Positions 9,103-24,741 of a stretch of DNA of 44,435 nucleotides are shown here, one piece after another. A program made the position numbers and the translations under genes. The notes under the pieces are model-generated. The model did not search any database and was not told where the DNA came from. It saw only the letters and a program-made list of their open reading frames with translations. Source of the stretch: Myxococcota bacterium (GTDB lineage Bacteria > Myxococcota_A > Polyangia > Polyangiales > Sandaracinaceae); contig JAYZQJ010000192.1 of the NCBI GenBank assembly GCA_036149055.1, positions 1 to 44,435 on the forward strand, given 5' to 3'. Numbering within the stretch: position 1 is the stretch's first letter; each line of letters starts with the position of its first letter.

Positions 9103-9263
9103 AGCGGCAATCAGTTTGAAACCACCGGCGCTGCGGGGCGGGACCGCGGCCAGGCGCGCCCGGTCGCTCCTCGACGATGCCCTAGCATCGCCTCGTCCCG
9201 CCCGAGCACGCCTGACCGCCGTCGCGCTACCGCATCCCTCGGCTCTCCAAACTGATCGCCGCT

Positions 9264-10556
9264 CTAGCGGAACCAGGCGGGCGTGCCGACGAGCACCACC
9301 GCGAACAGGCCCGCGGCGACGTAGAAGAGGTCGCCCCCGAGCGCGGGGTAGAGGAGGCCGCCGACCACGAGGCCGCCGATGCTGGCGAGGCTGCTCGCGC
9401 TGGTGACCGCGCCCTGCACCGAACCCTGGTCGTCCCCGCCGAGCTCGGCGACCCGGCTCTGGAAGGTCGGCCAGCTGAGCCCGTTGCCGACCGCGAAGCA
9501 GGCCGCGCCCACGTAGCTGATCGGGCCCGGCGGGAGCTGGTAGCTCAGCAGCGACAAGATCAGGAACACGAGCCCGGCGGCGAAGACGAGGCGGCGGTCG
9601 ACGCGCTTGGACACGAAGCCGAGCACGGGGCCCTGGGCGACGATCATCATCAGCGAGAGCACCCCGAAGAAGGCGCCCAGCTCGCCCGCGTCCCAGCCGT
9701 AGCTCTCGGCCGCGTGAATGGGGAAGCCCGCGTAGAAGAAGTTGAAGGCGAGGAAGTGCACGAAGGTGGCCCCGAGCACGAGCGCCACCGCCGGCCGACG
9801 CAGCCCGCTCCGGAGCGCCCGCTTCGGCGGCTTCTTGTCGCACGGCTTGCCCTGCTGATGCAGGCCCGCCTCGGTCGCGTCGGGCGGCGGCGGGCCCTCG
9901 GGGCAGCGACCGCTCGGCTCGTCGAGCAGGGTCACGATCGCGACGGTGGTCACCAGCGCGAAGGCAGCCGCGACCGCGATCGGGAGGCGCGGGCCCCACT
10001 CGGTGCCGCCCAGGAGCCCGGCCGCGGCGGGCCCGATCGCGAAGCCGAGGCTCGCCGCCATGCCCATGCGGCCGAAGGCCACCTGCCGGACCTCGGGCGT
10101 CTCGCGGGTCAGGTCGGCGACGTACGCGTTCGCGACCGAGATGTTGCCGCCCGTGGCTCCGTCGAGCGCGCGGGCCGCGAACACGAGCAGCAAGGGCACC
10201 GTCAGGGTCGCGCCCGCGAAGCCGCCGAGCGCGGTGAGCGGCATGGAGAGCGCGAAGAAGAAGAGCAGCCACGCCGCGAGCGTGCCCACCTGGCTGGCGA
10301 CGAGCACCGGGCGGCGGCCGGTGCGATCCGACCAGCGCCCGAGGAGCGGGGCGCCGAAGAGCTGGAAGGCCGAGTACGTCGCGCCGACGAGCCCGTAGGT
10401 CCAGCTCGCCCCGCCGAGGTCGGTGACGATGAAGACCAGGAACGGGATCGCGAGCGAGAAGCCGAGCGTGCCGAGGAAGTGCACCGCGAGGATCGGCCCG
10501 AACCGCCGCCAGGGGAGCGGCGGCGCAGGAGCGGGTGCGATCGCCGCGTCGGCCAT
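9264..10556 (-). CDS. MFS transporter (DHA1/TetA-like)
   Basis: Motif A GRWSDRTGRRPVL, ARALDG, motif C-like GFAIGPAAAG; about 12 hydrophobic segments. Confidence 0.92.
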   Translation of the reverse strand: MADAAIAPAPAPPLPWRRFGPILAVHFLGTLGFSLAIPFLVFIVTDLGGASWTYGLVGATYSAFQLFGAPLLGRWSDRTGRRPVLVASQVGTLAAWLLFFFALSMPLTALGGFAGATLTVPLLLVFAARALDGATGGNISVANAYVADLTRETPEVRQVAFGRMGMAASLGFAIGPAAAGLLGGTEWGPRLPIAVAAAFALVTTVAIVTLLDEPSGRCPEGPPPPDATEAGLHQQGKPCDKKPPKRALRSGLRRPAVALVLGATFVHFLAFNFFYAGFPIHAAESYGWDAGELGAFFGVLSLMMIVAQGPVLGFVSKRVDRRLVFAAGLVFLILSLLSYQLPPGPISYVGAACFAVGNGLSWPTFQSRVAELGGDDQGSVQGAVTSASSLASIGGLVVGGLLYPALGGDLFYVAAGLFAVVLVGTPAWFR

Positions 10557-10577
10557 GCCGCAGGGTAATGGTTATGG

Positions 10578-11456
10578 GTGGTCGATGTGGTGGCGCCCCC
10601 GACCGAGCTGGACCTCGAGCGCGTGCGCGGCTGCCTGCTCGGCGGGGCGCTCGGTGACGCGGTCGGCGCCAGACACGAAGGCGCGCCTCCAGCCGGAGGT
10701 CGAGCCCTCCGCCCCGGTCACTTCACCGACGACACGCAGCTGACCCTGGCGACCGCGGAAGCGATCGCGGACGCCGGGCGCGCGGATCCCGAGCGGATCG
10801 CGGCCGGCCTCCTCGCCTGGCATCGCCGCGACCCGATCCGCGGCGTCGGCGCGGCCACCGCGAAGGCGCTGCGCGAGCTCTCGGTGGGCGGACACTGGGC
10901 GCTGGTCGGTCGGACCGGCGAGCACGCCGCGGGCAACGGCGCCGCCATCCGGACCGCGCCCCTCGCCTTCGTCCTCGATCCGCGCGATCCGAAGGCGCGG
11001 CGCACGATCCGCGACGTCGCCCGCATCACCCACCGCTCCGACGAGGCCTACGCCGGCGCCCTCGCCGTGTGCCTCGCCGTGCACGACGCGCTGAGCGACG
11101 ACCTGGACCTCGACCTGATCGCCGCCGCCCTCCCGGACAGCGGAGTGCGAGATCGGCTGCGGGAGATCGCGCGACTCGAGCTCCGTGACGCGGCCGCGCG
11201 CGGGACCTCGGGGTGGGTCGTCGACGCCGTGCCGCTCGCCCTCCGCGCCGCCTCGATCCCGGACTTCGAGTCGATGCTCGCCGAGGTGGTGGCCCTGGGC
11301 GGAGACTGCGACTCGATCGGGTCCATGGCCGGTCAGATCTGGGGCGCCCGTCACGGCGCCGCGGCGCTCCCCACCGCGATGCTCCGCGAGCTGCCCGGCC
11401 GAGACGACGTCGAGCGCGTCGCCCACGCCTTCGCTCGAAAGCGCCCGGATCGTTGA
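10578..11456 (+). CDS. ADP-ribosylglycohydrolase family protein
   Basis: GCLLGGALGDAVG, FTDDTQLT, AGNGAAIR, ITH, GGDCDSIGSMAG. Confidence 0.93.
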   Translation: MVDVVAPPTELDLERVRGCLLGGALGDAVGARHEGAPPAGGRALRPGHFTDDTQLTLATAEAIADAGRADPERIAAGLLAWHRRDPIRGVGAATAKALRELSVGGHWALVGRTGEHAAGNGAAIRTAPLAFVLDPRDPKARRTIRDVARITHRSDEAYAGALAVCLAVHDALSDDLDLDLIAAALPDSGVRDRLREIARLELRDAAARGTSGWVVDAVPLALRAASIPDFESMLAEVVALGGDCDSIGSMAGQIWGARHGAAALPTAMLRELPGRDDVERVAHAFARKRPDR

Positions 11457-11493
11457 CACCGGCCGCCGACCGTCGCACACCGCTTCGGTGCCG

Positions 11494-11664
11494 ATGAGGT
11501 TCTTCGTCGTCCACTGCGACGCCGGGTTCAGTCGCTCGCCCGCGGTCGCCGCGGCGCTGTCCAAGGTGTTGCTCGGCGACGACCAGGAGCTCTTCCGTCG
11601 CTACCGGCCCAACATGCGCGTCTATCGAACGCTCCTCGAGCGCTCCCCGCTCCAGCTCGAGTGA
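11494..11664 (+). pseudogene. C-terminal fragment of a protein-tyrosine-phosphatase-like protein
   Basis: 56 aa carrying an intact P-loop VHCDAGFSRS and a downstream PN motif, but lacking the N-terminal half of the fold. Confidence 0.6.
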
Positions 11665-11671
11665 GCGCCGA

Positions 11672-12409
11672 TCACCGGGTCGTCGGGGCGTAGGTTCGCA
11701 TGTGGGCGCCTTCGCCGGGGCGGGTGACCTGCTGCATGAAGCAGTCGCGGGCGGAGATGCGGGAGAGGCCCAGCTCGGCCCAGCGCGGGTGCTCGACGTT
11801 CAGCTCGCTGCGGCCGCGGCGGTGGCGCTGCGACTCGTGCATCGCGCCCCACCAGCTCCACACGCCGTGGTGCAGGGCGTCGTCGGTCTGCGCGAAGTAC
11901 TGCCCGAAGAGGGAGCGCGCCTTGTAGCGGGGGCTCGCCTCCCCGCAGACGAGCGAGAACAGCGGGCCGCGCCCGTCGCTCACCGTCGTGCCGCGTCCGT
12001 CCGGCGCGGGCTCCGCGCGGAGGCTCGGATCGTGGCGCACGGGCATGCGCAGCGCGGGCACCTTGTACTCGACGAAGGCGGCGCTGTCGCTGGCCACGTC
12101 GAGCACGAAGAGGGTCTGGCGCGGCGTGGGCATCGGCACGCTCAGATCGGGCTGCGCGATGAGGGAGCAGACGATCTCGTCGAAGGGCTCCGGCTCGTCG
12201 AGGGTGCCGGGCGCGTAGCGCGCGTGGATGAGGTTGAGCAGGGCGCGGCCCGGCACCGGCTCGACGAGCTCGACCCCCGCCGGCACCACGGACGCCACGC
12301 GCTCGAGCGGCACCTCGAAGGTGAAGCTGATCTGGAAGCCGAGGTCCCACTCCAGCCCGAGCGGGCGCCCGGCGAGGGTGTCGGCGGCGGCGGGGTCGAC
12401 GTGATCCAC
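11672..12409 (-). CDS. DUF2071 / acetoacetate-decarboxylase-like fold protein
   Basis: ISFTFEVPLERVASVVPAGVELVEPVPGRALLNL resembles the N-terminus of this superfamily. The GTG start at 12409 is approximate. Divergent from the biosynthetic operon. Confidence 0.6.
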   Translation of the reverse strand: MDHVDPAAADTLAGRPLGLEWDLGFQISFTFEVPLERVASVVPAGVELVEPVPGRALLNLIHARYAPGTLDEPEPFDEIVCSLIAQPDLSVPMPTPRQTLFVLDVASDSAAFVEYKVPALRMPVRHDPSLRAEPAPDGRGTTVSDGRGPLFSLVCGEASPRYKARSLFGQYFAQTDDALHHGVWSWWGAMHESQRHRRGRSELNVEHPRWAELGLSRISARDCFMQQVTRPGEGAHMRTYAPTTR

Positions 12410-12511
12410 GCCCCGGAAGCTAGCCGAGCGGAAGGGCTCCTCGGCCGCCTGAGCACCGATTGAGCAGCGGATGGACACGAGGAGCGGCCGCGGGGGTGCT
12501 TTGATTCGGGG

Positions 12512-13420
12512 GTGACTCCGGTCCTCCTCTTCCCCGGTCAGAGCTCGCTCCAGCCCGAGATGCTGGCCGAGGCGCAGGCCGTCTGGCCGGAGGTCACCCG
12601 CGACGTGATGCGGGAGGCGCAGGCGGCGCTGTCCCGCGACCTCTCCGGGTGGTGCGTCCGCGTCGAGCCGACCTGCAATCAGGACGTGCAGCTCGCCGTG
12701 TTCCTGACGACCCACGTGCACCTCGCGGCGCTGCGGCGAGAGGGACACGACGCGCCGGTGTCGCTGGGGCTCAGTCTCGGCGAGTACAACCACCTCGTGC
12801 ACATCGGCGCGCTGCCGTTCGCGGACGCGCTGCGCCTCGTGTCGGCGCGGGGCGAGGCCTACGACGCCGGCCCGAGGGGCGCGATGGCGGCCGTCTTCCC
12901 CCTCTCGGAGGAGGAGCTCCGACCGCTGCTGGCCGGGGACGTCGAGATCGCCAACTTCAACTCGCCCACCCAGCACGTCGTCGCCGGCCGCCGGGTCGAC
13001 GTCGAGGCGACGGTCGATCGGGTCGAGGAGGAGACCTACGCGCGCGCCGTCGTGATCGAGCGACGCTGCCCGATGCACGTGCCGCGGTTCGCGCCGGCCT
13101 CCGCCGCGCTGCGCCCTTTCCTGGAGGCGGCGCCGTGGACGACCCCACGACGGCCGTACCTGCCGAACGTGGACGCGGAGCCGCTCGAGGCGCCGACCCC
13201 CGCGCAGATCGTGGAGCGCCTGACACGACACGTGCACCAGCCGGTGCGCTGGAGGGCGTCGATCGATCGTGTGGTCGCGCTCCACGGAGACGTCCTCTTC
13301 CTCGAGGTGGGGCCCGGGCGCGTGCTCACCGATCTCCTGCGGGCGCCGTGGCGCGAGGAGCCTCGCGCGCGCACCAGCGACTGGGCGGCGGCGATGGAGG
13401 CGCTCGATGGAGCTCGATGA
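12512..13420 (+). CDS. fabD: ACP S-malonyltransferase (FabD-like)
   Basis: LFPGQSS, GLSLGEY with catalytic Ser, conserved RG, ANFNSPTQHV, PMH, PVRW, EVGPGRVL. Confidence 0.93.
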   Translation: MTPVLLFPGQSSLQPEMLAEAQAVWPEVTRDVMREAQAALSRDLSGWCVRVEPTCNQDVQLAVFLTTHVHLAALRREGHDAPVSLGLSLGEYNHLVHIGALPFADALRLVSARGEAYDAGPRGAMAAVFPLSEEELRPLLAGDVEIANFNSPTQHVVAGRRVDVEATVDRVEEETYARAVVIERRCPMHVPRFAPASAALRPFLEAAPWTTPRRPYLPNVDAEPLEAPTPAQIVERLTRHVHQPVRWRASIDRVVALHGDVLFLEVGPGRVLTDLLRAPWREEPRARTSDWAAAMEALDGAR

Positions 13421-13916
13421 GCTGGCGCGCTCGCTCCGGCGCGCGCACCTCGTGAGCCCCGACGCGTCGGAGGCGCTGGAGATCGACGCCGACGGCGTCG
13501 AGCGCATGCTCCGGCATCGCCCGCCGATGCGGCTGGTCGACGCGCTCGATCGCTGGGACCGCGCGTCGCGCTCGCTGCGCGGGCGCCGCACGGTCGCGCC
13601 CGAGGACCCCGTGCTCGCCGGCCACTTCCCGGGAGAGCCCGTGTACCCCGGCGTGCTCCAGCTCGAGATGATGGGTCAGCTCGGCCTGTGTCTCGGGTGG
13701 CTGGAGGCGCGCGAGCGCGGAGACGACGCCCCGATGGACGGGCGCCTGCTCAAGATCCACCACGCCACCTTTCTCGACGCGGTGCGACCGGGGGACCGCC
13801 TCACGATCGAGGCCCGCGCGGTCGACGACAACCCGCTCACCGCGGTCGTCGCGTCGCAGGCGTGGCGTGACGAGAGCCTCTGCGCGACCTGCGTGATGGA
13901 GATCTACTTTGCCTGA
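13407..13916 (+). CDS. 3-hydroxyacyl-ACP dehydratase (FabZ/FabA family)
   Basis: HRPPMRLVD and GHFPGEPVYPGVLQLE with the catalytic His/Glu. Confidence 0.9.
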   Translation: MELDELARSLRRAHLVSPDASEALEIDADGVERMLRHRPPMRLVDALDRWDRASRSLRGRRTVAPEDPVLAGHFPGEPVYPGVLQLEMMGQLGLCLGWLEARERGDDAPMDGRLLKIHHATFLDAVRPGDRLTIEARAVDDNPLTAVVASQAWRDESLCATCVMEIYFA

Positions 13917-15192
13917 TCGACGCATCGCCCTCACCGGCATGAGCATCGCGACGCCCCTCGCGGACACGCTCGACGGCTACCTCGAGGCGCTCCTGGCCGG
14001 CCGCTCCGCGATCACCAAGTGGCGCACGATCCCGACCGAGCGCATCTACTGCAAGGTCGGGGCGGATCTGGGCGACTACGACGTCGCGGGCGCGGTGGCG
14101 GCGCTGGAGGAGCGCACCGACGCCGCGGTGTGGCGGCGGCTGGCGCGGCTTTGTCGGCGCGCGCCCTGGGCGACGGCGCTCTCGATGCTCTCGGCGGTGC
14201 GGGCGGTCGACGACGCGGCCGCGCACGGCGCGAGCGACTCGCACGAGACCGCGGTGGTCGTCGCCGGGCACAACCTCACGAGCGGCTACGTCTACCGCGA
14301 GACGATGGAGTTTCTCGAGGAGCCGGACTTCATCGACGGGCTGATGTCGCTCCACTCCCTCGACACCGACCACGCGGGGAGCGTCTCCGAGGTGCTGGGC
14401 GCGCGCGGCCCCATCTACACGGTCGGCGGCGCATGCGCGAGCGGCAACCACGCGCTCCGCCTCGCGGTGGACGAGATCCGTCACCGAGGCATGAAGGCCG
14501 CGGTCGTCGTCGGCGCGCCGACCGACTTCTCCCCCGTGGATCTGCACGCGATGGCGGTGATGGGCGCCATCAGCCACGAGAGCTTCAACGAGCGCCCGGC
14601 GGAGGCGAGCCGGCCGTTCGACACCCGACGCGAGGGCTTCGTGCCCGCGCACGGCGCCGGGGCGCTGGTGATCGAGGACTGGGAGCACGCGCGAGCCCGC
14701 GGCGCGCGGATCCACGCCGAGGTGGTCGGGGTGGAGGCGAGCGCCGACGCGAACCACGAGCCGCAGCCCTCGGGGGAGAGCCAGACGCGCTTGATGCGCC
14801 GGCTCCTCGAGCGGTGCGACCTGACGCCCGAGCGGATCGACTACGTGAACATGCACGCGACCTCCACCCACCTCGGCGACCTGACGGAGGTGCGCTCCAT
14901 CCGCGAGGTCTTCGGCGATCACACGAAGCGGCTGCGGGTGAACGCGACCAAGTCGATGCTGGGGCACACGACCTGGGCCGCGCCGATCGTGGAGCTGGTG
15001 GCGGCGGTGCTGCAGATGCAGGCGGGGCGGCTGCACCCGTCAATCAACGTGGTCGAGCGAGACCCGGAGGTGGACCTCGACATCTGCGACGACGGACCGG
15101 TCGCGTGCGCGGTGGGCTACCTGATGAAGACCGCGTTCGGCTTCGGCGGCACGAACTGCATCGCGATCCTGCGCCACCCGGAGGCGCGCTGA
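13909..15192 (+). CDS. Beta-ketoacyl-ACP synthase (FabF/PksF-like) with intact Cys-His-His triad
   Basis: TVGGACASG (Cys codon 14434-14436), MHATST, KSMLGH, SRPFD, FGFGGTN; TTG start. Confidence 0.93.
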   Translation: MPDRRIALTGMSIATPLADTLDGYLEALLAGRSAITKWRTIPTERIYCKVGADLGDYDVAGAVAALEERTDAAVWRRLARLCRRAPWATALSMLSAVRAVDDAAAHGASDSHETAVVVAGHNLTSGYVYRETMEFLEEPDFIDGLMSLHSLDTDHAGSVSEVLGARGPIYTVGGACASGNHALRLAVDEIRHRGMKAAVVVGAPTDFSPVDLHAMAVMGAISHESFNERPAEASRPFDTRREGFVPAHGAGALVIEDWEHARARGARIHAEVVGVEASADANHEPQPSGESQTRLMRRLLERCDLTPERIDYVNMHATSTHLGDLTEVRSIREVFGDHTKRLRVNATKSMLGHTTWAAPIVELVAAVLQMQAGRLHPSINVVERDPEVDLDICDDGPVACAVGYLMKTAFGFGGTNCIAILRHPEAR

Positions 15193-15932
15193 TGGCGATG
15201 TTCGTCACCGGGGGATCGCGCGGGCTCGGCCGCGGCGTGGTGGAGGCGGCGCTCCGAGCAGGCCACGACGTCGCCTTCACGTACGTGCAGAACCGCGCGG
15301 CGGCGGACGACGTGCTCGCCTGGGCCGCGGCGCACGCCCCGGACGCGCGCTGCCGCGCCTACGCGCTCGACGTCGCCGACCCGCGGGCCGTGGAGGAGGT
15401 GGGAGACGCGGTGCTCGACGACTTCGAGGCGGTGCGCGCGGTGGTCTGCAACGCCGGCGTCGTGGAGCACGCGCTCGCCGCGCAGATGTCGGACGAGACG
15501 TGGCACCGCGTGCTGACCACCAACCTCTCGGGGGCCTTCTACGTCGCGCGACACTTCCTGATGCCCTTCCTCGCCGACGGGGGCGGGCGCCTCGTGTTCG
15601 TCGGGTCGATCGCGCAGGACGGAATGAGCGGCCAGGCGAACTACAGCGCGAGCAAGGCGGGGCTCGTCGGCCTCGCGAAGGCGCTGGCCAAGGAGTACGG
15701 CCGCAAGAACATCACCGCGAACGTCGTCGTGCCCGGCTTCTTCGACACCGACATGACGCGGGACAGCATGGCGGAGAGCTACATGGCGTTCTGGCGGCAG
15801 CACTGCCCCGTGGGACGCGTCGGCGAGATCGAGGAGGTCGCGCAGGTCGTGCTCTTCCTCGCCTCGGACGCGTCGAGCTTCGTCAACGGGCAGGCGGTCC
15901 CCGTGACCGGCGGGCTGGACTGGGCGCCGTGA
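15192..15932 (+). CDS. 3-oxoacyl-ACP reductase (FabG-like SDR)
   Basis: TGGSRGLG, NAG, GQANYSASKAGL, PGFFDTDM; TGATG coupling to the ketosynthase. Confidence 0.92.
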   Translation: MAMFVTGGSRGLGRGVVEAALRAGHDVAFTYVQNRAAADDVLAWAAAHAPDARCRAYALDVADPRAVEEVGDAVLDDFEAVRAVVCNAGVVEHALAAQMSDETWHRVLTTNLSGAFYVARHFLMPFLADGGGRLVFVGSIAQDGMSGQANYSASKAGLVGLAKALAKEYGRKNITANVVVPGFFDTDMTRDSMAESYMAFWRQHCPVGRVGEIEEVAQVVLFLASDASSFVNGQAVPVTGGLDWAP

Positions 15933-17152
15933 GCGTCGGCATCGAGAAGCTGAGGGCCTACCCCTCGACCCTGTCGCTCTCGCTCGGCGCGCTCGCCGAC
16001 GCGCGGGGGCGCTCCCGCGAAGAGACCACCGAGCGGCTGCTCGTCGAGGAGCGCTCGGTGATGCCGCCCTGGGAGGATCCGGTGACGATGGCGGTGAACG
16101 CCGCCGCGCCGCTCCTCGACGACGCGGAGCGCGCCGACGTCGGCCTGCTGATCGTCGGCACCGAGACGCCGGTCGACCTCGAGAAGCCGATCAGCACCTG
16201 GGTGCACCGCTTCCTCGAGCTGCCCTCCTCCTGCCGGAACTTCGAGATCAAGCACGCCTGCTACAGCGTGACCGCGGCGACACAGATGGCGCTCGGTTGG
16301 CTGGGCACGCCGGCTGGCCGCGGGCGAAAGGCGCTGGTCGTGGGCACCGACGCGAGCCTGCTCGGGATCGGCGAGCCCTACGAGTTCGTGCTCGGCGCCG
16401 GCGCGGTCGCGGTCGTGCTCTCGCATCAGCCCTCGTTCCTCGAGCTCGAGCCCGGCCGGAGCGGGGTGTACGCCGCCGAGGTGACCGACGTCATCCGACC
16501 GTCGCGTCGCGTCGAGACCGGCAGCTCCGAGGAGTCGCTGTTCGCCTACCTCGAGGCGGTGGACGGCGCCTACGACGCCTACGAGGAGGTGGTGGGCGAG
16601 GCCGACTTCGGGGCACGCTTCGCGCACGTCGTCTACCACGCGCCCTTCGGCGGCATCACGTTCCGCGCCCACAAGGCGCTGTCCGGCCGGAACCCGGAGT
16701 CGACGAAGGCCGCGGCGTGGGCCGACTTCGAGCGGCGATCGCTGCCGGGCCTCGTGCACCACCGACGCACCGGTGGGGTCTACGGCGGGAGCACGTTCTT
16801 GAGCCTGCTCGGCATGGCGGACGCCCGCGACGACCTCTCGCCCGGCGACCGGGTCGGGATCTTCAGCTTCGGATCCGGCTCCTGCGCGGAGCTCTACGAC
16901 GGAGTCGTGGGGCCGCGCGCCAGGGAGGTGGCGGCGCGGGCCGAGACGCGCGCGCAGCTCGACGCCCGCGACCCCATCGACGTGGGCACCTACGAGCGGC
17001 TCGAGCGCTGGCGAGACGCGTCGGTCGCGAAGGCCGACCTGACGATCGATCGCGGCGCGCTGGGAGACCACTACGAGCGCCGCTGGGCCGGGCGGGGGCG
17101 ATGCGTGCTCCGCGGCGTGTCCGGGTGGGTGAGGGACTACGCGTGGTCGTGA
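15929..17152 (+). CDS. HMG-CoA-synthase-like beta-branching enzyme (PksG/CurD family)
   Basis: GTET (Glu), FEIKHACYS (Cys), YHAPFGG (His), FSFGSGSCAE; GTGA overlap. Confidence 0.92.
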   Translation: MSVGIEKLRAYPSTLSLSLGALADARGRSREETTERLLVEERSVMPPWEDPVTMAVNAAAPLLDDAERADVGLLIVGTETPVDLEKPISTWVHRFLELPSSCRNFEIKHACYSVTAATQMALGWLGTPAGRGRKALVVGTDASLLGIGEPYEFVLGAGAVAVVLSHQPSFLELEPGRSGVYAAEVTDVIRPSRRVETGSSEESLFAYLEAVDGAYDAYEEVVGEADFGARFAHVVYHAPFGGITFRAHKALSGRNPESTKAAAWADFERRSLPGLVHHRRTGGVYGGSTFLSLLGMADARDDLSPGDRVGIFSFGSGSCAELYDGVVGPRAREVAARAETRAQLDARDPIDVGTYERLERWRDASVAKADLTIDRGALGDHYERRWAGRGRCVLRGVSGWVRDYAWS

Positions 17153-17793
17153 CGCTGCCCGAGACGCTGACCGGCGAGAGCCTCGCCGCGCTGGCGGAGA
17201 CCCTCCGGTCGGACGCGCCCCATCGGGTGCTGCGCGGCGCCGATGGGGAGAGCTTCTGTCAGGGGCTCTCGCTCGAGGCGCCGCCCGACGACCAGGCCGT
17301 CGACCGCTTCGTGGCCTGCGTGCGCGCGCTCCGCTGCGGGCCGCCGGCGATCGCCGTCGTCGAGGGCGCGGCGAGGGGCGCGGGCGTGGGGCTCGCGGCC
17401 GCGTGCGACCGCGTGATCGCGACCCCGTCCGCTCGGTTCGCGCTCTCCGAGCTGCTCTTCGGCCTCGTGCCCTCGGCGATCTGGCCGCTGCTCGCGGAGC
17501 GGGTGAGCGCCGCCAAGCTGCGGTGGTGGGCCCTGACCGGGGCCACGCTCGACGCCGAGGCCGCGCGCGCGATCGGGCTCGTCGACGAGGTGACCGAGAC
17601 CCCCGTCGACCTCGAGGCCACCCTCGCGCCGCTCCGCCGGGTGAGCGCCGCCGCCGTCCAGGCGCTCAAGAGCACCACCGCCCCGATGGGCGCGGTGGCG
17701 ATCGGCGCCGAGCGCACGCGGGCGCGGCTCGAGACCACCGAGGTCCGGGAGCGCATCGCGCGCTTCCTCGACGGAGAGGCGCCGTGGGACTGA
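17149..17793 (+). CDS. Enoyl-CoA hydratase ECH1 (PksH-like dehydratase)
   Basis: GAARGAGVGLAAACD and FALSELLFGLVP; short (214 aa). Confidence 0.85.
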   Translation: MTLPETLTGESLAALAETLRSDAPHRVLRGADGESFCQGLSLEAPPDDQAVDRFVACVRALRCGPPAIAVVEGAARGAGVGLAAACDRVIATPSARFALSELLFGLVPSAIWPLLAERVSAAKLRWWALTGATLDAEAARAIGLVDEVTETPVDLEATLAPLRRVSAAAVQALKSTTAPMGAVAIGAERTRARLETTEVRERIARFLDGEAPWD

Positions 17794-18494
17794 TCGAGAC
17801 GACCGACCGAGACGGCGTGAGGATCGTCGCGCTCCGCGACGAGGCCGGCCAGAACGCCCTCGACCGACCGATGGTCGAGGCGCTGACCGACGCCCTCGCG
17901 GTGCCGGAGAGCGTGCGCGCCGTGGTGCTTCGCGGGGCCCCGGAGGTGTTCTCTCGCGGGGCCAGCCCGCGCGTGCTGGCGCAGCTCGAGGAGGGGGAGA
18001 TCGCGCCGACCGAGCTGACCCTGCCGCGGGCCGTTCTCGGGGTGGAGGTGCCGGTGGTGGCCGCCATGGAGGGGCACGCCATCGGCGGAGGGCTCGCGCT
18101 CGGGCTCTGCGCGGACGTCGTGGTCCTCGCCGAAGAGAGCCGCTACGGGGCGACCTTCGTCGACCTCGGGTTCACGCCGGGGATGGGCATGACCCGGCTC
18201 CTCGAGCGCGTCATGTCGCCGCTGATGGCCCACGAGCTGCTGCTCGGCGGCGAGCCACGGCGAGGGCGAGACCTGAGGCACGTGGGTTTCAACCACGTCG
18301 TCCCGCGGCGCGAGGTGTGGCCGCGCGCGCTCGAGATCGCCGACCGCTTCGCCGAGAAGCGGCGCAGCGTGCTGACGATGCTGAAGGCGGAGCTGGCGCG
18401 CCCCTGGAGACGCGCGTTCGAGGAGGCGCGAGAGGCGGAGGCGGAGATGCACGCGCGCTGCTTCGAGGCCCTGCGGAGGGCGAGCGATGCGTGA
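17784..18494 (+). CDS. Enoyl-CoA hydratase ECH2 (PksI/CurF-like decarboxylase)
   Basis: AAMEGHAIGGG, GFTPGMG, AEKRRSVLTMLK and C-terminal EAEMH, typical of ECH2. Confidence 0.88.
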   Translation: MGLIETTDRDGVRIVALRDEAGQNALDRPMVEALTDALAVPESVRAVVLRGAPEVFSRGASPRVLAQLEEGEIAPTELTLPRAVLGVEVPVVAAMEGHAIGGGLALGLCADVVVLAEESRYGATFVDLGFTPGMGMTRLLERVMSPLMAHELLLGGEPRRGRDLRHVGFNHVVPRREVWPRALEIADRFAEKRRSVLTMLKAELARPWRRAFEEAREAEAEMHARCFEALRRASDA

Positions 18495-19284
18495 CCTCGA
18501 GGGCGCCGCGGCGCTCGTGACCGGCGGAACCGCGGGCATCGGCCTCGCGACGGGGCTCGCGCTCGGACGCCGCGGCGCGCACGTCACGCTGACCTGTCGC
18601 TGGGGCAGCGTGGAGCCCGAGGAGGTGGAGGCGCGCTTCGAGGCTGCCGGCGCGCCCGCGCCGACGATCCTGGAGGCCGACGCCAGGAACGCCGAGGCGA
18701 CGGCGGAGGTCATGGAGTCGATCGCGAGCCGGCACGAGGCGCTGCACGTCTTCGTCTCGAACGTGGGCTTCGCGCAGCTCGTCGAGGAGCTCGACGACTA
18801 CTCCGAGAAGGGCCTGGCGCAGAGCATCGGCTACAGCGCCTGGCCGCTCGCCGGACACCTGAAGCAGGCCTCCGCGCGCTTCGGTCGCCCTCCTCGCTAC
18901 GCCGTCGCCGTCTCGTCCTGTGGCGCGGACGAGTGGCACCCCAACTACGCCTTCGCCGGCGCCGCCAAGGCGACCCTCGAGACGCTGGTCCGCTACCTCG
19001 CCCGACGCCTCGGCCCCGCCTGCCTCGTCAACGCCGTGCGCGCGCGCTGGGTGCACACCGAGTCGCTCGAGGCGACGGTCGGCGAGGACTTCGTCCCGTT
19101 CGCGCGCCGCCACGACGCGCCGGGCCTGCTCCAGACGCCCGAAGAGATCGCCGACGTGATCATGGCGATGACCAGCGGCTGGCTGGACGGGATGCGCGGA
19201 CAGGTCGTGACCGTCGACCACGGCACCGGGTTCTACGACAACGCCATGCGCCTCTACGCGGCGCGGCTTCACGAGGAGACATGA
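18487..19284 (+). CDS. SDR, FabL-like enoyl-ACP reductase (copy 1)
   Basis: TGGTAGIG; Y-x6-K motif YAFAGAAK followed by ATLETLVRYLA. Confidence 0.8.
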   Translation: MRDLEGAAALVTGGTAGIGLATGLALGRRGAHVTLTCRWGSVEPEEVEARFEAAGAPAPTILEADARNAEATAEVMESIASRHEALHVFVSNVGFAQLVEELDDYSEKGLAQSIGYSAWPLAGHLKQASARFGRPPRYAVAVSSCGADEWHPNYAFAGAAKATLETLVRYLARRLGPACLVNAVRARWVHTESLEATVGEDFVPFARRHDAPGLLQTPEEIADVIMAMTSGWLDGMRGQVVTVDHGTGFYDNAMRLYAARLHEET

Positions 19285-19287
19285 GAG

Positions 19288-19554
19288 ATGACGACGCCCG
19301 ACCGAGACCGGATCCGCGAGACCGTGCTGAAGTACCTCGCCCGCGCGGTGGACGACCTCGACCCGGCGGAGGTGGACACCTCCCTCTCGATGAAGGACCT
19401 CGGCGCGAACAGCATCGACATCGTCGAGGTGGTCTCGAGCTCCATGCGTGAGCTCCGGATCAAGGTGCCCCGGAAAGAGCTCAACGGGCTGAAGAACATC
19501 GACGAGCTCGTGCAGCTCCTGCACGACACGGCGCTGGCCAAGGCCGCGGAGTGA
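19288..19554 (+). CDS. Acyl carrier protein with GANS (AcpK/donor-type) motif
   Basis: 88 aa, SMKDLGANSIDIVEVV; attachment Ser codon at 19411. Confidence 0.92.
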   Translation: MTTPDRDRIRETVLKYLARAVDDLDPAEVDTSLSMKDLGANSIDIVEVVSSSMRELRIKVPRKELNGLKNIDELVQLLHDTALAKAAE

Positions 19555-20363
19555 GCCGGGGCGGAGGGAGTCGGGTCGCCCTCGTCACCGGGGGCACGCG
19601 GGGCATCGGGCTCGCGACCGGGCTCGCGCTCGGCGCCAGGGGGGACCGCGTGGTGCTGACCCACGCCTGGGGGAGCGCCGACGAGGACGAGGTGCGGGCG
19701 CGCTTCGACGCCGCCGCAGCCCCGGCGCCGCTCATCGTGCAGGCCGACGTCGGGCGAGCGGAGGACACCGAGGCGCTCATGGAGACGCTCGCGTCCTGGT
19801 GCGACGGGGTGGACGTCTTCGTCAGCAACGCGTCCCTCGCCGCCGTGCCCCGCTCGCTCGACGACTACGACGAGCGCGCCCTGCTCAAGAGCGTCTCGTA
19901 CGGCGCGTGGCCCCTCGTCGCCTACACCCGGGCGCTCCACGCCACCTTCGCGCGCTGGCCCCGCTACGTGGTCGCGATGTCCTCCGACGGGCCCGACCGC
20001 TTCTCGGTCGGCTACGACTTCGTCGCCGCCTCCAAGTCGGTCCTCGAGACGCTGGTGCGCTACCTGACCTGGCACCTCCGCGAGGAGGACGTGCGCGTGA
20101 ACGCGGTGCGGTCCCGCGGGGTCCGGACCGAGTCGTTCGAGCGCACCTTCGGGCCCGCGCTCCTCGATCACGTGCGACGCCTCGGGCTCGAGGATCAGCT
20201 CGTGCCGCCGGAGGAGGTGGCCGGCGCCGCCGTCGCCCTCACCAGCGGGCTCATGGACGCGGTGCGCGGCCAGGTCCTCACGGTCGATCGCGGCGGCGCC
20301 TTCGCCGACAACCTCTTGCAGATCTACGCGCGCCGCCACGCGCTCGATGGAGACCTCCGATGA
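19551..20363 (+). CDS. SDR, FabL-like enoyl-ACP reductase (copy 2)
   Basis: TGGTRGIG; YDFVAASKSVLETLVRYL; clear paralog of 18487-19284. Confidence 0.8.
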   Translation: MSRGGGSRVALVTGGTRGIGLATGLALGARGDRVVLTHAWGSADEDEVRARFDAAAAPAPLIVQADVGRAEDTEALMETLASWCDGVDVFVSNASLAAVPRSLDDYDERALLKSVSYGAWPLVAYTRALHATFARWPRYVVAMSSDGPDRFSVGYDFVAASKSVLETLVRYLTWHLREEDVRVNAVRSRGVRTESFERTFGPALLDHVRRLGLEDQLVPPEEVAGAAVALTSGLMDAVRGQVLTVDRGGAFADNLLQIYARRHALDGDLR

Positions 20364-21652
20364 GCCACCCCGACTATCTCGACGCGACCTACGACATGTT
20401 CCTCTCGAGCATCGCGGGCGAGCAGGCCGAGAGCACGCGCTTCGCCGACTGGGTGCGCGAGGTCGAGCGGGCCGGGCTCTTCGCCTTCGAGGGGCGACGC
20501 CAGGCGATGCAGGGCACGCGCGTGGAGGTGGAGCGCACGACCGGCGAGCGCCACCCGGTGCTCAACCTCTCCTCCTACAACTACCTCGGGTACTCGACTC
20601 ACCCCGAGGTCATCGAGGCGGCCAAGGCCGCGCTCGATCGCTTCGGTCTGGGCGCGGCGAGCTCCCCGGTGCACGGCGGCACCTTCTCGATCCACGCGCA
20701 GCTCGAGGCGGAGCTGGTCGACTTCTTCGGCCTCCCGGACCGAGGCGTCACGCTGTTCTCCTCGGGCTACGGGGTCAACACCGGCACCCTGTCGGCGCTG
20801 CTGCGGAAACAACACCACGTCGTGATGGACCGCGCGGCGCACATGTCGATCCTCGAGGGCGCGCAGCTCAGCCGCGCCGGGCTGCACTACTTCGAGCACA
20901 ACGACCCCGAAGATCTGGACCGCGTGCTGACCGAGGTCTGCGGCGCGAGCTCGCGCGTCCTCGTCTGCGTCGAAGGCGTCTACAGCGCGGACGGCGACTT
21001 CGGGGCCCTGCGCGCCATCCGGGACGTGGTGAAGCGTCACGGCGCGCTGCTCCTCGTCGACGAGGCGCACAGCTTCCTGGTCGCCGGCCCGCACGGGCGC
21101 GGGGTGAGCGAGGCGGCCGGCGTGCTCGAGGACGTCGACCTCTACGTGCTGACGTTCAGCAAGGCGCTCGGCGGCGTCGGCGGGGCGCTCGTCGCGAAGG
21201 CCGACATCGCGCGCTACGTCGGATGGTACGCGCGATGCCGCATGTTCTCTTGCGCCATCGATCCCGCGGTGACCGGCGGGGTGCGCAAGGCCCTGGAGCT
21301 CGGCCGCGGGCCGGACGGGCACGCGCGGCGGACGCGGATCGTGGAGAACGCGGCGCACCTCCGCGCCAGGCTCGCGGACCACGTCGACCTGGGGACCAGC
21401 GAGAGCTGGATCGTGCCGGTGATCTACGGCGACGAGGAGCGCACGCTCCCGCTGCTGGACTTCGTGCAGCGCAACGGGCTCGACGGCAGCGTCCTGCAGT
21501 TCCCGGCGGTCGGCATCGGAGAGTCGCGGCTGCGCCTCTTCGTGACCTCGGAGCACACCGCGGCGGAGCTCGACGCGGCGGCGGAGGTCGTCATCCGCGC
21601 GGCCCACCAGCTCGGGTTCGCGCGCGACGGAGCTCCTCCGCCAGCACGCTGA
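20360..21652 (+). CDS. PLP-dependent alpha-oxoamine synthase (BioF/KBL/serine palmitoyltransferase/CqsA family)
   Basis: NLSSYNYLG, FSSGYGVN, EGVYSADGD, DEAHS, TFSKALG (PLP Lys), SRLRL; ATGA coupling. Confidence 0.92.
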   Translation: MSHPDYLDATYDMFLSSIAGEQAESTRFADWVREVERAGLFAFEGRRQAMQGTRVEVERTTGERHPVLNLSSYNYLGYSTHPEVIEAAKAALDRFGLGAASSPVHGGTFSIHAQLEAELVDFFGLPDRGVTLFSSGYGVNTGTLSALLRKQHHVVMDRAAHMSILEGAQLSRAGLHYFEHNDPEDLDRVLTEVCGASSRVLVCVEGVYSADGDFGALRAIRDVVKRHGALLLVDEAHSFLVAGPHGRGVSEAAGVLEDVDLYVLTFSKALGGVGGALVAKADIARYVGWYARCRMFSCAIDPAVTGGVRKALELGRGPDGHARRTRIVENAAHLRARLADHVDLGTSESWIVPVIYGDEERTLPLLDFVQRNGLDGSVLQFPAVGIGESRLRLFVTSEHTAAELDAAAEVVIRAAHQLGFARDGAPPPAR

Positions 21653-23654
21653 TCGCGCGCTTCAGGCGGTGCCGGTACGTGCCCCAGGGCAGCCCGAGAT
21701 CGGCGGCGGCCGCGCGCTGCTTCACGGCGGGCTCGATGTACGTGGCCTCGAGCACCGCCGCGAGCTCGGCGTGCGCGGGGCTCTCGGCCATCGCCCGGAT
21801 CCCGTCCCGCAGCCAGCCTCGGCACGCCTCCACCGGGTCGGCCGTCGACGGGAGCAGCCGGGTGAGGGTCGCCGCCTCGAGCGTGTGCGCGGCGTGGAAG
21901 ACCCCGAGCGCCTCGCGGACGGCCTCGGGCGCGACCCGCGACGACGGCGGGTGGATCGACGGCGGCGCGGACGGCGGGCTCGCGTCGACCTGCGCGACCA
22001 TGCTCAGCCAGAGCGGCATCGCCGCGCGCGCGGCGTCGCGCACGTCCACGCCGGGATCACCGCCCCGGGCGTCGAGGAACCAGAGGCCGTACTCGCGTCC
22101 GTCGTACGTCGTCCGTTCGAGCAGCTGCAGCGGGCTGACGCCCGAGAGCGCCCGCCACCGCTCGACGTCGTGGGTCACGACCACCATCGCCGCGTGGGGC
22201 GGATCGCTCGACGCCGTGATGTGGGGCCCCATCGCCATGACCGCGCTCAACGCCGGCCCGAAGCGCTGATACGTGTCCCGCGCGCCCCACCAGCGGCAGA
22301 CGCTGACGTCGATCCCCTCGGCGGCGCGCTTGTCGGCGGCCAGCTCCAGCGCCCGGCGCGTCACCGGATCGACCGGGCCGTGGGACCCGTCGGGGCTGAT
22401 CAGCTGGAAGCCGACGGGCTCGGAGACCTCGTCGCGCAGCACGTAGGCCGGCGGGCCGCGACGCGCGAGCCGCTCGAAGGCCGCGGCGCACTCTTCGCCC
22501 TCCTCCTGCGCCACGAGCGCGCGGGCCCAGTCGAGCTCGGGAGGTCGCGCCCGGTCGAGCCAGGTCGAGCGGAGGACCTCCGCGCCGAACGCCGCGGCGA
22601 CGGTGGGGTCGGCCCGCAGCGCGTGGAGCCCGTCGATGAACAGGCCGCGCTGGGACGCCGGCTCGAGCGACGTCATGCGGCGGATGTACTCGCGCGCGGC
22701 GCGCCGCCCGAGCTCGCGGACACGCTCCGGGTCACGGCGCGAGAGTTCGTCGAACACCACGTCGCGCACGAGCTCGTGCGGCCTCAAGCCGCGGGCGGTC
22801 TCCTCCACGTAGGGCAGGCGCCGGAGCCAGTCGTACAGCTCCCCGACGTCGGCGGGCGCGAGGAGCTCGCGGAGCATCGGCTCGTCGCACGCGCGGGGGA
22901 CGGCGAGCGCGGCGAGGGCGGATCGGTGCGCCTCCGCCCGGGCCTCGCTCAGCACGCGTGCGGCGAGGTGCCGGACGAGATCCCGCGGCAGGACGCGCTG
23001 AGCGAGCGCCTTCGGCACCTCCTCCGGCTCCTGGAGCAGGAGCCGGATCGCCAGCGGGTTGCCTTCGGTCAACGCCCGCACCGGCCCGGCCATGACCCGG
23101 TCGAGCCCCGCCCGCTCCAGCAGCGCGGCCACCGCGCCCTCGTCGAGACCGCCCAGCCCGAGCTCCACGTGCTCGACGAGCGTGGCAAACGGGGTCATGG
23201 CGTCGACCTGGGTGGAGCGCGACGTCACCACCACCGTCAGGTTCGCCCCGGCGTGAGTGAAGAGCTCGGAGAAGAGCCAGCTGGAGATCCGCGCGACGTG
23301 CTCGAAGCCGTCGACCACCAGGACATCGCGCGCCTCGCCGCGCCCGAGCGTCGCGAAGCCCCCCTCCAGCCCGAGCTCGTCGAGCGCCTCCCGGACCCCC
23401 GCCGGGGTCGGCGCGATCTGCGCGGCGGAGAGGAACAGGGAGCGCCGGCGCGCCCGGAGGACCCCGAGGTGCGCGACCATCGCGAGGGCCGTCTTCCCCA
23501 CCCCGGGCGGCCCGTGCAGGGCCACGACGAAGGGACGCGCGCCGTCCGCCGCGCAGGCCCGCTCCACGAGCGCCCTCTCCTCGCCCCTCCCGACGAGCTG
23601 CTCCCCCGCCGACGCCCACGCCGCGTCGACGAAGCTCTGCCCCACCACCATCAC
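21591..23654 (-). CDS. AAA/STAND-like ATPase with C-terminal HTH, putative transcriptional regulator
   Basis: LVGR, Walker A GPPGVGKT, Walker B LVVDGFE, GNPLAI, HELVRD; C-terminal AAAADLGLPWGTYRHRL. Confidence 0.82.
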   Translation of the reverse strand: MMVVGQSFVDAAWASAGEQLVGRGEERALVERACAADGARPFVVALHGPPGVGKTALAMVAHLGVLRARRRSLFLSAAQIAPTPAGVREALDELGLEGGFATLGRGEARDVLVVDGFEHVARISSWLFSELFTHAGANLTVVVTSRSTQVDAMTPFATLVEHVELGLGGLDEGAVAALLERAGLDRVMAGPVRALTEGNPLAIRLLLQEPEEVPKALAQRVLPRDLVRHLAARVLSEARAEAHRSALAALAVPRACDEPMLRELLAPADVGELYDWLRRLPYVEETARGLRPHELVRDVVFDELSRRDPERVRELGRRAAREYIRRMTSLEPASQRGLFIDGLHALRADPTVAAAFGAEVLRSTWLDRARPPELDWARALVAQEEGEECAAAFERLARRGPPAYVLRDEVSEPVGFQLISPDGSHGPVDPVTRRALELAADKRAAEGIDVSVCRWWGARDTYQRFGPALSAVMAMGPHITASSDPPHAAMVVVTHDVERWRALSGVSPLQLLERTTYDGREYGLWFLDARGGDPGVDVRDAARAAMPLWLSMVAQVDASPPSAPPSIHPPSSRVAPEAVREALGVFHAAHTLEAATLTRLLPSTADPVEACRGWLRDGIRAMAESPAHAELAAVLEATYIEPAVKQRAAAADLGLPWGTYRHRLKRAISVLAEELRRARTRAGGPRG

Positions 23655-23736
23655 GCCCTAAAACCAGAGCCAGGAGACGAGGTCAAGGCTCAGGCGGCTC
23701 GCGACTGGTACCCTCCGGGCCGCCGAGGAGGACGGA

Positions 23737-24741
23737 ATGAGCGAGACACTCGGGGAGGCGATCGACGCGGGAGACCTCGCGGCGGTGGAGCGGGCGCTGG
23801 AGGCCGGCGCGTCGGCGCTCCGGGCCGAGGACGGGACGGCGCCGCTCCGCCGAGCGCACGCGGCGGGGCCGGCGATGGTGGCGCGGCTGAAGCGCGCAGC
23901 TCGGGAGGAGAGCGCAGAGACGCGGCCGGGGCTGGCGCGCGAGGCCGCGGGCGGGAGCCTCGACGCGCTCTGGGTCGAGGCCGAGGTCAAGGCGACCGCG
24001 CGCGCGCTCGGTGAGCTCGTGCAGGCGCCGCGGCGAGAGGCCGACGTCGCCGCGCGCCCGATCGAGGACGCACATCGTCTGGCGTTCGTGGTGGGACCGA
24101 AGGGCTCCCGCTGGAGCGCCGTCCCGGTGGGCGTCGACGCGCCGTGGCGGCTCGAGAGCGTGCCGGAGCTCGAGGCGCGCGGCGACGGTCTGGAGCCGCT
24201 CACCCGGGCGCTCGCGTCGCGCGTCGGCGCTCGCGCGCTGCTCGTGCGCGACGAGGCGTTCACGGTGTACGAGCCGGGCGGGGGAGTGACCCGCCGCACC
24301 TTCGACGAGCCCAGCTGGGAGGCGGAGGATCCGGGGAGCCCCGCGGCGCGCCGGGACGCGGCGCTCGCCGAGATGGGCGTCTCGCTCTTCCGCGCGAACG
24401 TGCGCAGCGATGGCCTGCGCGTGCAGCTCACGACGGACGCCGACGTCGCGCGCGTCGATCTGGTCGTGCTCCAGGAGCTGGGCGACCCCTCGGTCGATCG
24501 CCGACTCTCGGCGGTGAGCGCGCCCGCGCCGGTCGGCCCGGCGGGGCAGCCCGCGCTGGTCAACGCGCCGCCGCCGAGGGTGACGCCCGACGAGCCGGCC
24601 CCGAGCGACGAGGCGCCGATGCAGCGCGAGGCGCCGCCGATGGCGCCCCCGCTCCAGGGCCACGCCCCACCTCCGCTCGTGGACAGCCCGAGCGCGAAGC
24701 CCCCGCCGCCGATGGTGGGTGAGCGCGGAGACGAGGGATGA
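23737..24741 (+). CDS. Hypothetical protein with ankyrin-like N-terminus and Pro-rich tail
   Basis: GAGGA RBS; AIDAGDLAAVERALEAGAS...GTAPLRRA; PPP-rich C-terminus. Confidence 0.6.
   Translation: MSETLGEAIDAGDLAAVERALEAGASALRAEDGTAPLRRAHAAGPAMVARLKRAAREESAETRPGLAREAAGGSLDALWVEAEVKATARALGELVQAPRREADVAARPIEDAHRLAFVVGPKGSRWSAVPVGVDAPWRLESVPELEARGDGLEPLTRALASRVGARALLVRDEAFTVYEPGGGVTRRTFDEPSWEAEDPGSPAARRDAALAEMGVSLFRANVRSDGLRVQLTTDADVARVDLVVLQELGDPSVDRRLSAVSAPAPVGPAGQPALVNAPPPRVTPDEPAPSDEAPMQREAPPMAPPLQGHAPPPLVDSPSAKPPPPMVGERGDEG

Follow-up and report, generated by a model that had tools for sequence, protein, structure and literature searches.

The 44,435-nucleotide stretch of DNA analysed here (the window; contig C192 in our numbering, JAYZQJ010000192.1 of the Myxococcota bacterium assembly GCA_036149055.1) carries an operon of eleven plus-strand open reading frames (ORFs) at positions 12512-21652. 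In gene order they encode an acyltransferase (AT), a dehydratase (DH), a ketosynthase (KS), a ketoreductase (KR), a 3-hydroxy-3-methylglutaryl (HMG)-acyl carrier protein synthase (HMGS), two enoyl-CoA hydratase-family proteins (ECH1, ECH2), an enoyl-acyl carrier protein reductase (ER), an acyl carrier protein (ACP), a second ER and an alpha-oxoamine synthase (AOS). With each start codon taken closest to the preceding stop, nine of the ten junctions overlap (-14, -8, -1, -4, -10 or -4, -10, -8, -4 and -4 bp in gene order) and the remaining one, between the first ER (SDR1) and the ACP, is a 3-bp gap; the AOS is translationally coupled to the operon. ORF, junction and family analysis thus bears out the layout given in a preliminary description of this DNA, as well as its statement that no modular polyketide synthase (PKS) or nonribosomal peptide synthetase lies in the 44 kb: a Pfam scan of the 47 window ORFs found no such domains. 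The boundaries proposed there hold for the eleven genes and leave out a twelfth, gene X (11672-12409, minus strand, 245 aa), which is divergent from the operon, with starts 102 bp apart. Each part comes from a known family; the combination appears to fit neither a PKS beta-branching cassette nor the canonical Spt pathway, and the product of the operon is probably an undescribed molecule of a branched, sphingolipid-like kind.

The operon is genuine and complete and not an assembly artefact, since a single contig of another run spans 9263-24500 unbroken (145 differences) and most codon changes in a metagenome copy that is nearly identical (L077) are synonymous (64 synonymous against 24 non-synonymous differences over 12 genes). 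Its DNA is matched in mostly marine runs from 12 studies, one of which may have been its origin, and the closest proteins with a named source carry the label Myxococcota. The host genome is 9.9 Mb in size (73% GC, 96% complete, 289 contigs). A recent foreign origin is unsupported: GC is 0.731 in both operon and genome, and the tetranucleotide distance of the operon ranks at the 76th percentile among 300 randomly chosen windows. We found no sigma-70-type promoter or terminator at 11400-12700, and contigs from the single RNA library are short and of low depth over the whole stretch, flanks included, and give no evidence of expression.

Enzymes of the fatty-acid and beta-branching types

The discrete AT, KS, KR, DH, ER and ACP characteristic of a type II fatty acid synthase are all present with their catalytic motifs. 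The AT (12512-13420, plus strand, as are all genes of the operon; PF00698) is FabD-like and a putative malonyl-CoA:ACP transacylase, with Ser88 in a GLSLG motif in place of GHSxG, a state found in 22 of 27 ATs of the family. It is followed by a FabZ-like 3-hydroxyacyl-ACP dehydratase (13407-13916; PF07977) and by a PksF-related KS (13909-15192; PF00109/PF02801) with an intact Cys176-His316-His353 triad and a presumed elongating role. The KR (15192-15932; SDR family) is FabG-like with YxxxK at 151. Both ERs (18487-19284 and 19551-20363; SDR family, FabL/FabI-type in the case of the first) carry Y-x6-K, at 154 and 155 respectively; they are paralogues with 51% identity, and FabL is the top NCBIfam model for each. 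The sole ACP of the operon (19288-19554; PF00550) is AcpK-related, with Ser42 in a GANS site. All six protein types score under the cut-offs of the housekeeping equivalogs and would therefore constitute a paralogous fatty-acid line; the best NCBIfam models of the KS and the ACP belong to the PKS cassette (PRK07103, 335 bits against a cut-off of 445; PRK07117, 53 against 79). Most loci with ER hits have two ER paralogues (26 of 36, a figure that includes duplicates and cut contigs). Such a pair would suit a division of labour between 3-methyl-enoyl and plain enoyl chains; several operon copies have a single ER, so one suffices there.

The operon shares discrete AT, Cys-His-His KS, KR, DH, ER and ACP with type II fatty acid synthases (FabD/F/G/Z/L/ACP) and with highly reducing type II PKSs. 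It differs from them in lacking FabH or a chain-length factor and in having a KS of PksF lineage, inserted HMGS and ECH genes and the GLSLG AT.

The HMGS (15929-17152; PF01154/PF08540) is of the CurD/PksG type. Its catalytic residues Glu79, Cys111 and His237 are present, and its best solved matches are CurD (E 4e-74) and PksG, ahead of HMG-CoA synthases. ECH1 (17143-17793, alternative start 17149; PF00378) is a PksH-like putative dehydratase whose top NCBIfam model is PRK07112 (95 bits, cut-off 250). ECH2 (17784-18494; PF00378) resembles the decarboxylases PksI and CurF, its top structure matches, and exceeds the cut-off of its top model PRK07110 (224.6 bits against 215).

The minimal HMGS cassette described in the available part of PMC7618002 works on an acceptor ACP in a modular PKS and consists of a donor ACP, a Cys-less KS0, an HMGS and an ECH1. 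With such cassettes (AcpK/PksF/PksG/PksH/PksI of bacillaene, CurB/C/D/E/F of curacin) the operon shares the Glu/Cys/His of the PKS-type HMGS, ECH1, ECH2, the GANS-type ACP and a PksF-related KS; it adds its own AT, KR, DH, two ERs and AOS. A further difference lies in the KS, which is not a KS0 in that Cys176 is kept, whereas the cassette KS0s have Ser or Met. In a FastTree phylogeny of 44 KSs, from which short or frameshifted rows were excluded, the operon KSs (n = 24, Cys in 24 of 24) form a single clade with support of 1.0, sister (0.974) to nine PKS-cassette KSs, all with Ser or Met, and both groups are separate from FabF-like and type I KSs. Parsimony on this small sample suggests that Cys is the ancestral state. 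The HMGS tree (49 rows, including one outgroup-side row from genome G023, on which none of our claims depends) has the same shape except for three PKS-adjacent HMGSs (L013, L016, L021), which fall on the operon side. HMGS cassettes were also compared on plasmids of Pseudoalteromonas SANK 73390 and Burkholderia FERM BP-3421, which we take to be producers of thiomarinol and spliceostatin.

The carrier proteins differ as well. Arg occupies the position three residues after the active-site Ser in six of six PKS donor ACPs and in none of 18 operon-type ACPs, that of the window included; in AcpK-type donors this Arg presumably serves HMGS binding. The W-flag motif, which we take to mark beta-branch acceptor ACPs, is absent from all 21 carrier-domain hits of the host genome, a set that missed four carrier domains on C8, and the control locus L065 shows two; the scan of the remaining genome proposed in the preliminary description therefore returned no acceptor among these hits. 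The KS-bearing ORFs of the 289-contig assembly include none that we recognised as a trans-AT module. The type I KS genes found there resemble PUFA-type enzymes or cis-AT single modules; large KS genes with several carrier and FabA-like domains, similar to polyunsaturated fatty acid (PUFA)-type synthases, lie at C8:18984-32164 and C191:1-8193. A long type I KS ORF accompanies one of 29 operon loci and three of three controls. Related locus L090 contains ER, DH, KS, KR, ACP and AOS genes with neither HMGS nor ECH within 16 kb, which fits a KS that extends chains unaided. Taken together, the KS Cys, the ACP without Arg and the lack of a detected acceptor PKS suggest that the operon lies outside the class of PKS beta-branching cassettes, and the complete reductive set with a Cys-His-His KS supports the earlier proposal of a self-contained pathway.

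The nearest precedent known to us is fogacin, the product of an aromatic type II PKS with beta-alkylation, KS-chain-length factor pairs and separate ACPs. That pathway shares HMGS chemistry by discrete type II enzymes with the operon, whose line appears instead to be fully reducing and AOS-terminated. The term fogacin was not found in the available part of PMC7949117. The architecture had not been recognised as a characterised cluster in the preliminary description, and we likewise found no account of it in the literature searched, which includes the available parts of PMC9582728, PMC7618002, PMC7949117 and PMC11324152 and leaves most subscription journals uncovered.

Distribution of the core and its alpha-oxoamine synthases

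Searching with the HMGS gave 26 genome loci. A stand-alone core, defined as this KS type with KR, HMGS, ECH, ER and ACP, is found in 17, of which 13 have an AOS in view; three others lie beside type I PKS genes and six are cut short or partial. The recurrence of the core in 17 of 26 loci shows that it is a conserved unit, the figures here and below being counts rather than tests, on kin that are not independent. Record titles, which may be wrong for bins, include a Krasilnikovia isolate (actinobacterial), Acidobacteriota, Nitrospinae, Aminicenantes, Litorilinea, Rhodobacteraceae and Gammaproteobacteria. The record title of L003 did not enter the tally of phyla, since the apparently identical L165 is placed in the phylum of the window. 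Of 401 genomes of that phylum, 12 have the KS type and five have an AOS of the window's clade (clade A), which in all five lies on the KS contig. Cassette and AOS occur together in ten of the 12 genomes; the other two have tandem KSs with neither cassette nor AOS in 18-20 kb. The operon-type HMGS is absent from the single congener searched.

Three loci (L058 in G013, L174 in G439, L175 in G237) have two Cys-active KSs of the operon lineage each, and neither HMGS nor AOS is seen within 18-20 kb in L174 and L175. A GMC oxidoreductase adjoins the cassette in L007, L010, L014 and L026, together with a class III aminotransferase in three of them. Phosphopantetheinyl transferases accompany many operon copies; the host genome has two candidates, on C260 and C147. 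The plasmid pSF001 of a cultured Serratia fonticola strain (CP013914.1; L060/L061) carries AT, ACP, DH, KS, KR, HMGS, ECH1, ECH2 and one ER, followed by a small unknown gene. Part of the cluster appears twice, across the two ends of this record, whose frameshifts look like sequencing errors.

The AOS (20360-21652; PF00155) belongs to an uncharacterised clade that takes in 901 of the 8000 candidates scored (E up to 1e-80). The residues of its pyridoxal phosphate (PLP) machinery, His161, Asp234, Lys268 and Arg392, can be aligned with serine palmitoyltransferase (SPT) and are invariant in 121 of 121 clade rows. For the N-terminal stretch the best match is Sphingomonas SPT, and Tyr73 and Ser102 are aligned between the two. 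According to the available part of PMC11906848, Ser at the equivalent of position 102 is the state of SPT and 8-amino-7-oxononanoate synthase, Val that of 2-amino-3-ketobutyrate CoA ligase and Thr that of 5-aminolevulinate synthase. Pro103, Cys293, Arg294 and Cys298 are specific to clade A; the first three are invariant, and Cys298 is present in 120 of 121 rows. The CqsA/LqsA model NF005526 gives 184 bits against a cut-off of 428, and CqsA structures rank near the bottom of the matches. Of the two product types named in the preliminary description, the sphingoid-like one thus gains from Tyr73, Ser102 and the neighbour genes described below, and the CAI-1-like one finds no specific support, as the CqsA score shows.

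Three AOS clades are attached to the same core, some core copies have none, and three loci (L001, L003, L164) carry both a clade A and a clade B AOS. Because three clades join one core and these double-AOS loci exist, the AOS is an exchangeable end module, a feature that had been overlooked. In the double-AOS loci a second, divergent ACP stands immediately 5' of the clade A AOS (L001:1027-1260, L003:11380-11625, L164:6735-6833).

Further AOS genes lie elsewhere in the host genome (G000). At C55:16137-23090 (L042), another type II locus combines two divergent gene groups, one with a thioesterase, two ACPs and an acyl-AMP ligase, the other with a KS, its KS-like partner, a gene of unknown function and an AOS that groups with the clade C AOSs found on the branching core of L020 and L053. 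A KS-ACP-AOS-like fusion at C271:9507-13103 (L046) is cut by the contig end; its AOS domain has no PLP-lysine motif and is possibly an inactive subunit. At C123:14542-17091 (L045), an AOS with a fused C-terminal GNAT domain has genes for an AMP-binding enzyme and a hydrolase and a FabH-like gene in its vicinity.

Gene X is a dedicated companion of clade A that had also escaped notice. Pfam and PDB sequence searches leave X unplaced, and only fold and embedding searches place it. The predicted fold is confident (AF2 pLDDT 90.9) and matches 3bh2 in a VIA comparison with Z 19.2 and a root-mean-square deviation (rmsd) of 3.0 over 202 aligned residues. Five acetoacetate decarboxylase (ADC)-like chains score Z 16.6-19.2 (rmsd 3.0-3.3, about 200 residues), the next hit has Z 5.4, and an embedding search (Atlas) gives 0.96 to ADC clusters. 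The model thus identifies X as an ADC-fold protein. It shares this fold with acetoacetate decarboxylase, MppR, Sbi00515 and Swit_4259, and differs from them in being only 10-15% identical, in having no conserved Lys and in its linkage to an AOS clade. Across 100 family rows, Lys is conserved at no column in at least 60%. The Schiff-base Lys of ADC presumably sits after a conserved Pro; in X the column after Pro122 holds Val, Thr, Ile or Ala, and the Lys-richest nearby column has it in 35 of 100 rows, so that the Schiff-base Lys is not found. The conserved polar residues are Glu31, Glu49, Glu77, Asp144, Gln169, Gln193, His206 and Gln225.

To follow the linkage we used 33 metagenome loci with a clade A AOS (at least 50% identity; the self-match L077 was dropped). 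X is present in 19 of these and in none of 46 loci with other AOSs. Under a strict rule, 18 of the 33 have cassette genes and the 46 loci with more distant AOSs have none; many of the contigs are short. Among the HMGS-anchored loci, X accompanies four of five with a clade A AOS and none of the 21 others, and P0133 is a single ACP-AOS-X fusion protein. The linkage to clade A, this fusion and the loci with AOS and X outside any visible cassette together suggest that X is a partner of the AOS and not of the cassette. X-family domains occur in two other fusions, with a class III aminotransferase in P0213 and with an FAD/NAD-binding protein in P0158.

The predicted product

Neighbour genes of several relatives point to sphingolipid-type chemistry. 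Ceramide-synthase-family GNATs stand beside the clade A AOS in five of the 33 loci (L086, L087, L091, L093, L103), and the core has such a neighbour in L053 and L056. Fatty-acid hydroxylases flank the AOS or core in L012, L084, L085 and L103, a desaturase does so in L022, and extra hydroxylase, desaturase or SDR genes flank the AOS in L011, L012, L022, L084, L085, L099 and L103; the SDR of L011 matches 3-ketosphinganine reductase below the cut-off. The host genome has one ceramide-synthase-family gene (C283, E 1e-69), unlinked to the operon, and its best CerR-like match reaches only E 1e-27. The label of the GNAT family, in part our assumption, comes from a locus on a Klebsiella plasmid, where such a GNAT accompanies genes for an acyl-AMP ligase, an epimerase, an ACP and an AOS. 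Together these form the gene set named for the Caulobacter sphingolipid pathway in the available part of PMC11324152. No solved structure of the bacterial ceramide synthase (bCerS) was matched, and no link between the annotation 'dATP pyrophosphohydrolase' and bCerS was found in the literature searched. Unlinked sphingolipid genes are common among producers, according to the accessible text of PMC11334938.

With the Caulobacter pathway (Spt, AcpR, AasR, bCerS and CerR; PMC11324152 and PMC11087976, in the parts available) the operon shares an AOS with the SPT-like Tyr73 and Ser102 next to a dedicated ACP; some relatives have ceramide-synthase-family and hydroxylase genes alongside, and its own genome has one such synthase. 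It differs in that the chain would be made de novo with branching enzymes rather than loaded by an acyl-ACP synthetase, in an AOS that scores under the SPT cut-offs and lies outside the canonical Spt clade, and in having the ADC-fold partner but neither CerR nor bCerS.

Our data are best explained, if with modest confidence, by a private type II line that makes a methyl-branched acyl-ACP, to which the AOS adds serine or a comparable small amino acid to give a branched sphingoid-type base. The AT would load malonyl onto the operon's ACP, and the Cys-active KS would form acetyl-ACP by decarboxylation and extend the chain. At one or more beta-keto stages, HMGS would add acetyl, ECH1 dehydrate, ECH2 decarboxylate and one ER reduce, so that a methyl branch remains; ordinary cycles would fall to KR, DH and the second ER, with the single ACP species serving as donor and acceptor. 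The AOS would then condense the acyl-ACP with an amino acid that is small and neutral, serine being the likeliest, releasing a methyl-branched 3-keto sphingoid-type base that the unlinked C283 enzyme could N-acylate. X may act on or hold the amino-ketone product, as a dedicated partner of the AOS that does not use Schiff-base chemistry. Within this scheme, a single iso-type branch or a few branches seem the somewhat likelier outcome, and repeated branches are a strong second possibility.

Several observations weigh against this scheme. The use of one ACP as donor and acceptor departs from the HMGS cassettes described in the accessible part of PMC7618002. The AOS has an invariant Pro103 (121 of 121 clade A rows) where SPT has Arg103, and falls below three NCBIfam SPT cut-offs (267/500, 237/640 and 223/670 bits); clade A and its sister clade B lie outside the clade of a canonical-cluster Spt (L169), so that the AOS appears to stand apart from the known Spt families. 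The operon itself holds no reductase, ceramide synthase or hydroxylase gene. X is present in none of the five clade A loci with a ceramide-synthase-family gene, and because the two never share a locus, X-bearing operons may send their product elsewhere. Four low-GC loci (L097, L099, L100, L107) have clade A AOS and X with no cassette in view, and the core of the Serratia plasmid lacks an AOS, which indicates that chain and AOS can occur apart. Gene content, catalytic residues, conservation and the link between AOS and X are observed; the reactions, amino acid, chain length, number of branches and role of X are predicted.

If the branched-base scheme is correct, acetate is the only source of methyl-branched long-chain bases in bacteria of several phyla, and the enzymes that make them have hitherto been described as accessories of giant polyketide lines. 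This could explain orphan branched sphingoid bases and lipid markers in marine samples, and would define a large uncharacterised AOS clade with an ADC-fold partner. The operon would also offer a small, fully discrete system in which to study how HMGS discriminates donor from acceptor on one ACP, and the sister relationship between the Cys-active KS clade and the KS0s is relevant to how the PKS cassette arose. Since the operon is present in Krasilnikovia (L001), a named isolate of the actinobacteria, its product can be sought directly.

A different fate of the same branched acyl line is the foremost alternative, one we regard as unlikely but worth serious attention: X could cyclise, dehydrate or isomerise a short or medium amino-ketone to yield a diffusible product, a signal or an antibiotic, in place of a membrane lipid. 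This would account for the distinctness of the AOS clade with its invariant Pro103, Cys293 and Arg294, for the tie of X to the AOS (fused in P0133, with X-family fusions in P0213 and P0158), for the separation of X from ceramide-synthase-family genes and for the patchy spread (five of 401 phylum genomes, not found in the congener searched); the ADC-fold relatives MppR and Sbi00515 work in small-molecule pathways. However, clade A AOSs without X directly adjoin ceramide-synthase-family genes (L086, L091, L093, L103), hydroxylase genes follow AOS and X in L084 and L085, the CqsA score is far below its cut-off, and no conserved dedicated exporter or sensor kinase lies beside the operon.

A bolder form of the branched-base scheme, which we think rather unlikely, has the line work iteratively, alternating branching and ordinary cycles with one ER for each. 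The result would be an isoprenoid-patterned (phytanoyl-like) chain built from acetate without isopentenyl diphosphate, to which AOS and X would add serine, and the Cys-KS clade would be the surviving free-standing form behind the PKS cassette, in which the Cys was lost. Aplidiasphingosine, a 5,9,13,17-tetramethyl base from a marine tunicate, is described in the available part of PMC2444003. The isoprenoid-patterned bases predicted for the operon would resemble it.

It is also conceivable, if improbable, that the main output is a branched acyl-ACP or isovaleryl-type primer for general lipids and that the AOS is an add-on that draws on the pool. Myxobacteria have an HMG-CoA route to isovaleryl-CoA, of which this would be the ACP-bound counterpart. 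The core occurs with no AOS in view in L015, L018, L023, L024 and the Serratia plasmid, three AOS clades share it, and the operon HMGS is the sole strong HMG-synthase match in its genome. Against this, an AOS accompanies 13 of 17 core loci and ten of the 12 phylum genomes with the KS and is translationally coupled here, and the operon's own DH, KR and second ER would be superfluous. The apparent mutual exclusion of the operon HMGS and other HMG synthases among family members is within chance (4 and 9 of 32 genomes; about 0.25, hand-calculated).

Two further readings are very improbable. Service in trans to a modular PKS elsewhere in the genome, in the manner of PksF/AcpK/PksG/H/I, would suit the PKS-cassette models that HMGS, ECH1, ECH2, KS and ACP match best, the 96% complete, 289-contig assembly, the HMGSs of L013, L016 and L021 beside type I PKS genes and the fusion gene at the edge of C271, but is at odds with the retained KS Cys, the absence of W-flags among the 21 carrier-domain hits, the PUFA-type or cis-AT-like nature of the genome's own type I KS genes and the 28 of 29 operon loci without a long type I KS ORF. 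A branched sulfonolipid-type base, formed by an AOS that takes cysteate or some other anionic amino acid, is suggested by the clade-invariant Arg294, which falls in the loop (Met277, Phe278 and Lys280 in CapB) that lines the CapB amino-acid pocket in the available part of PMC13692747, but SulA and CapB structures score the AOS far under SPT (131 against 207 bits), and the SulA-defining Lys281 of the second protomer, 30 residues past the PLP Lys in the accessible text of PMC9304779, corresponds by residue count and an F-S-x motif to Cys298 here.

Surrounding genes

A STAND-type ATPase gene (21591-23654, minus strand; Pfam scan), probably a regulator and of uncertain operon membership, is convergent with the operon and overlaps the AOS stop; the position is kept in three close relatives (L002, L004, L166). 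Upstream of X, at 9264-11664, lie genes for an MFS transporter (minus strand) and an ADP-ribosylglycohydrolase and a small phosphatase-like ORF, none of which is conserved beside related operons. The end of the contig (39567-44043) carries housekeeping genes for an SRP54-type GTPase and DNA polymerase I.

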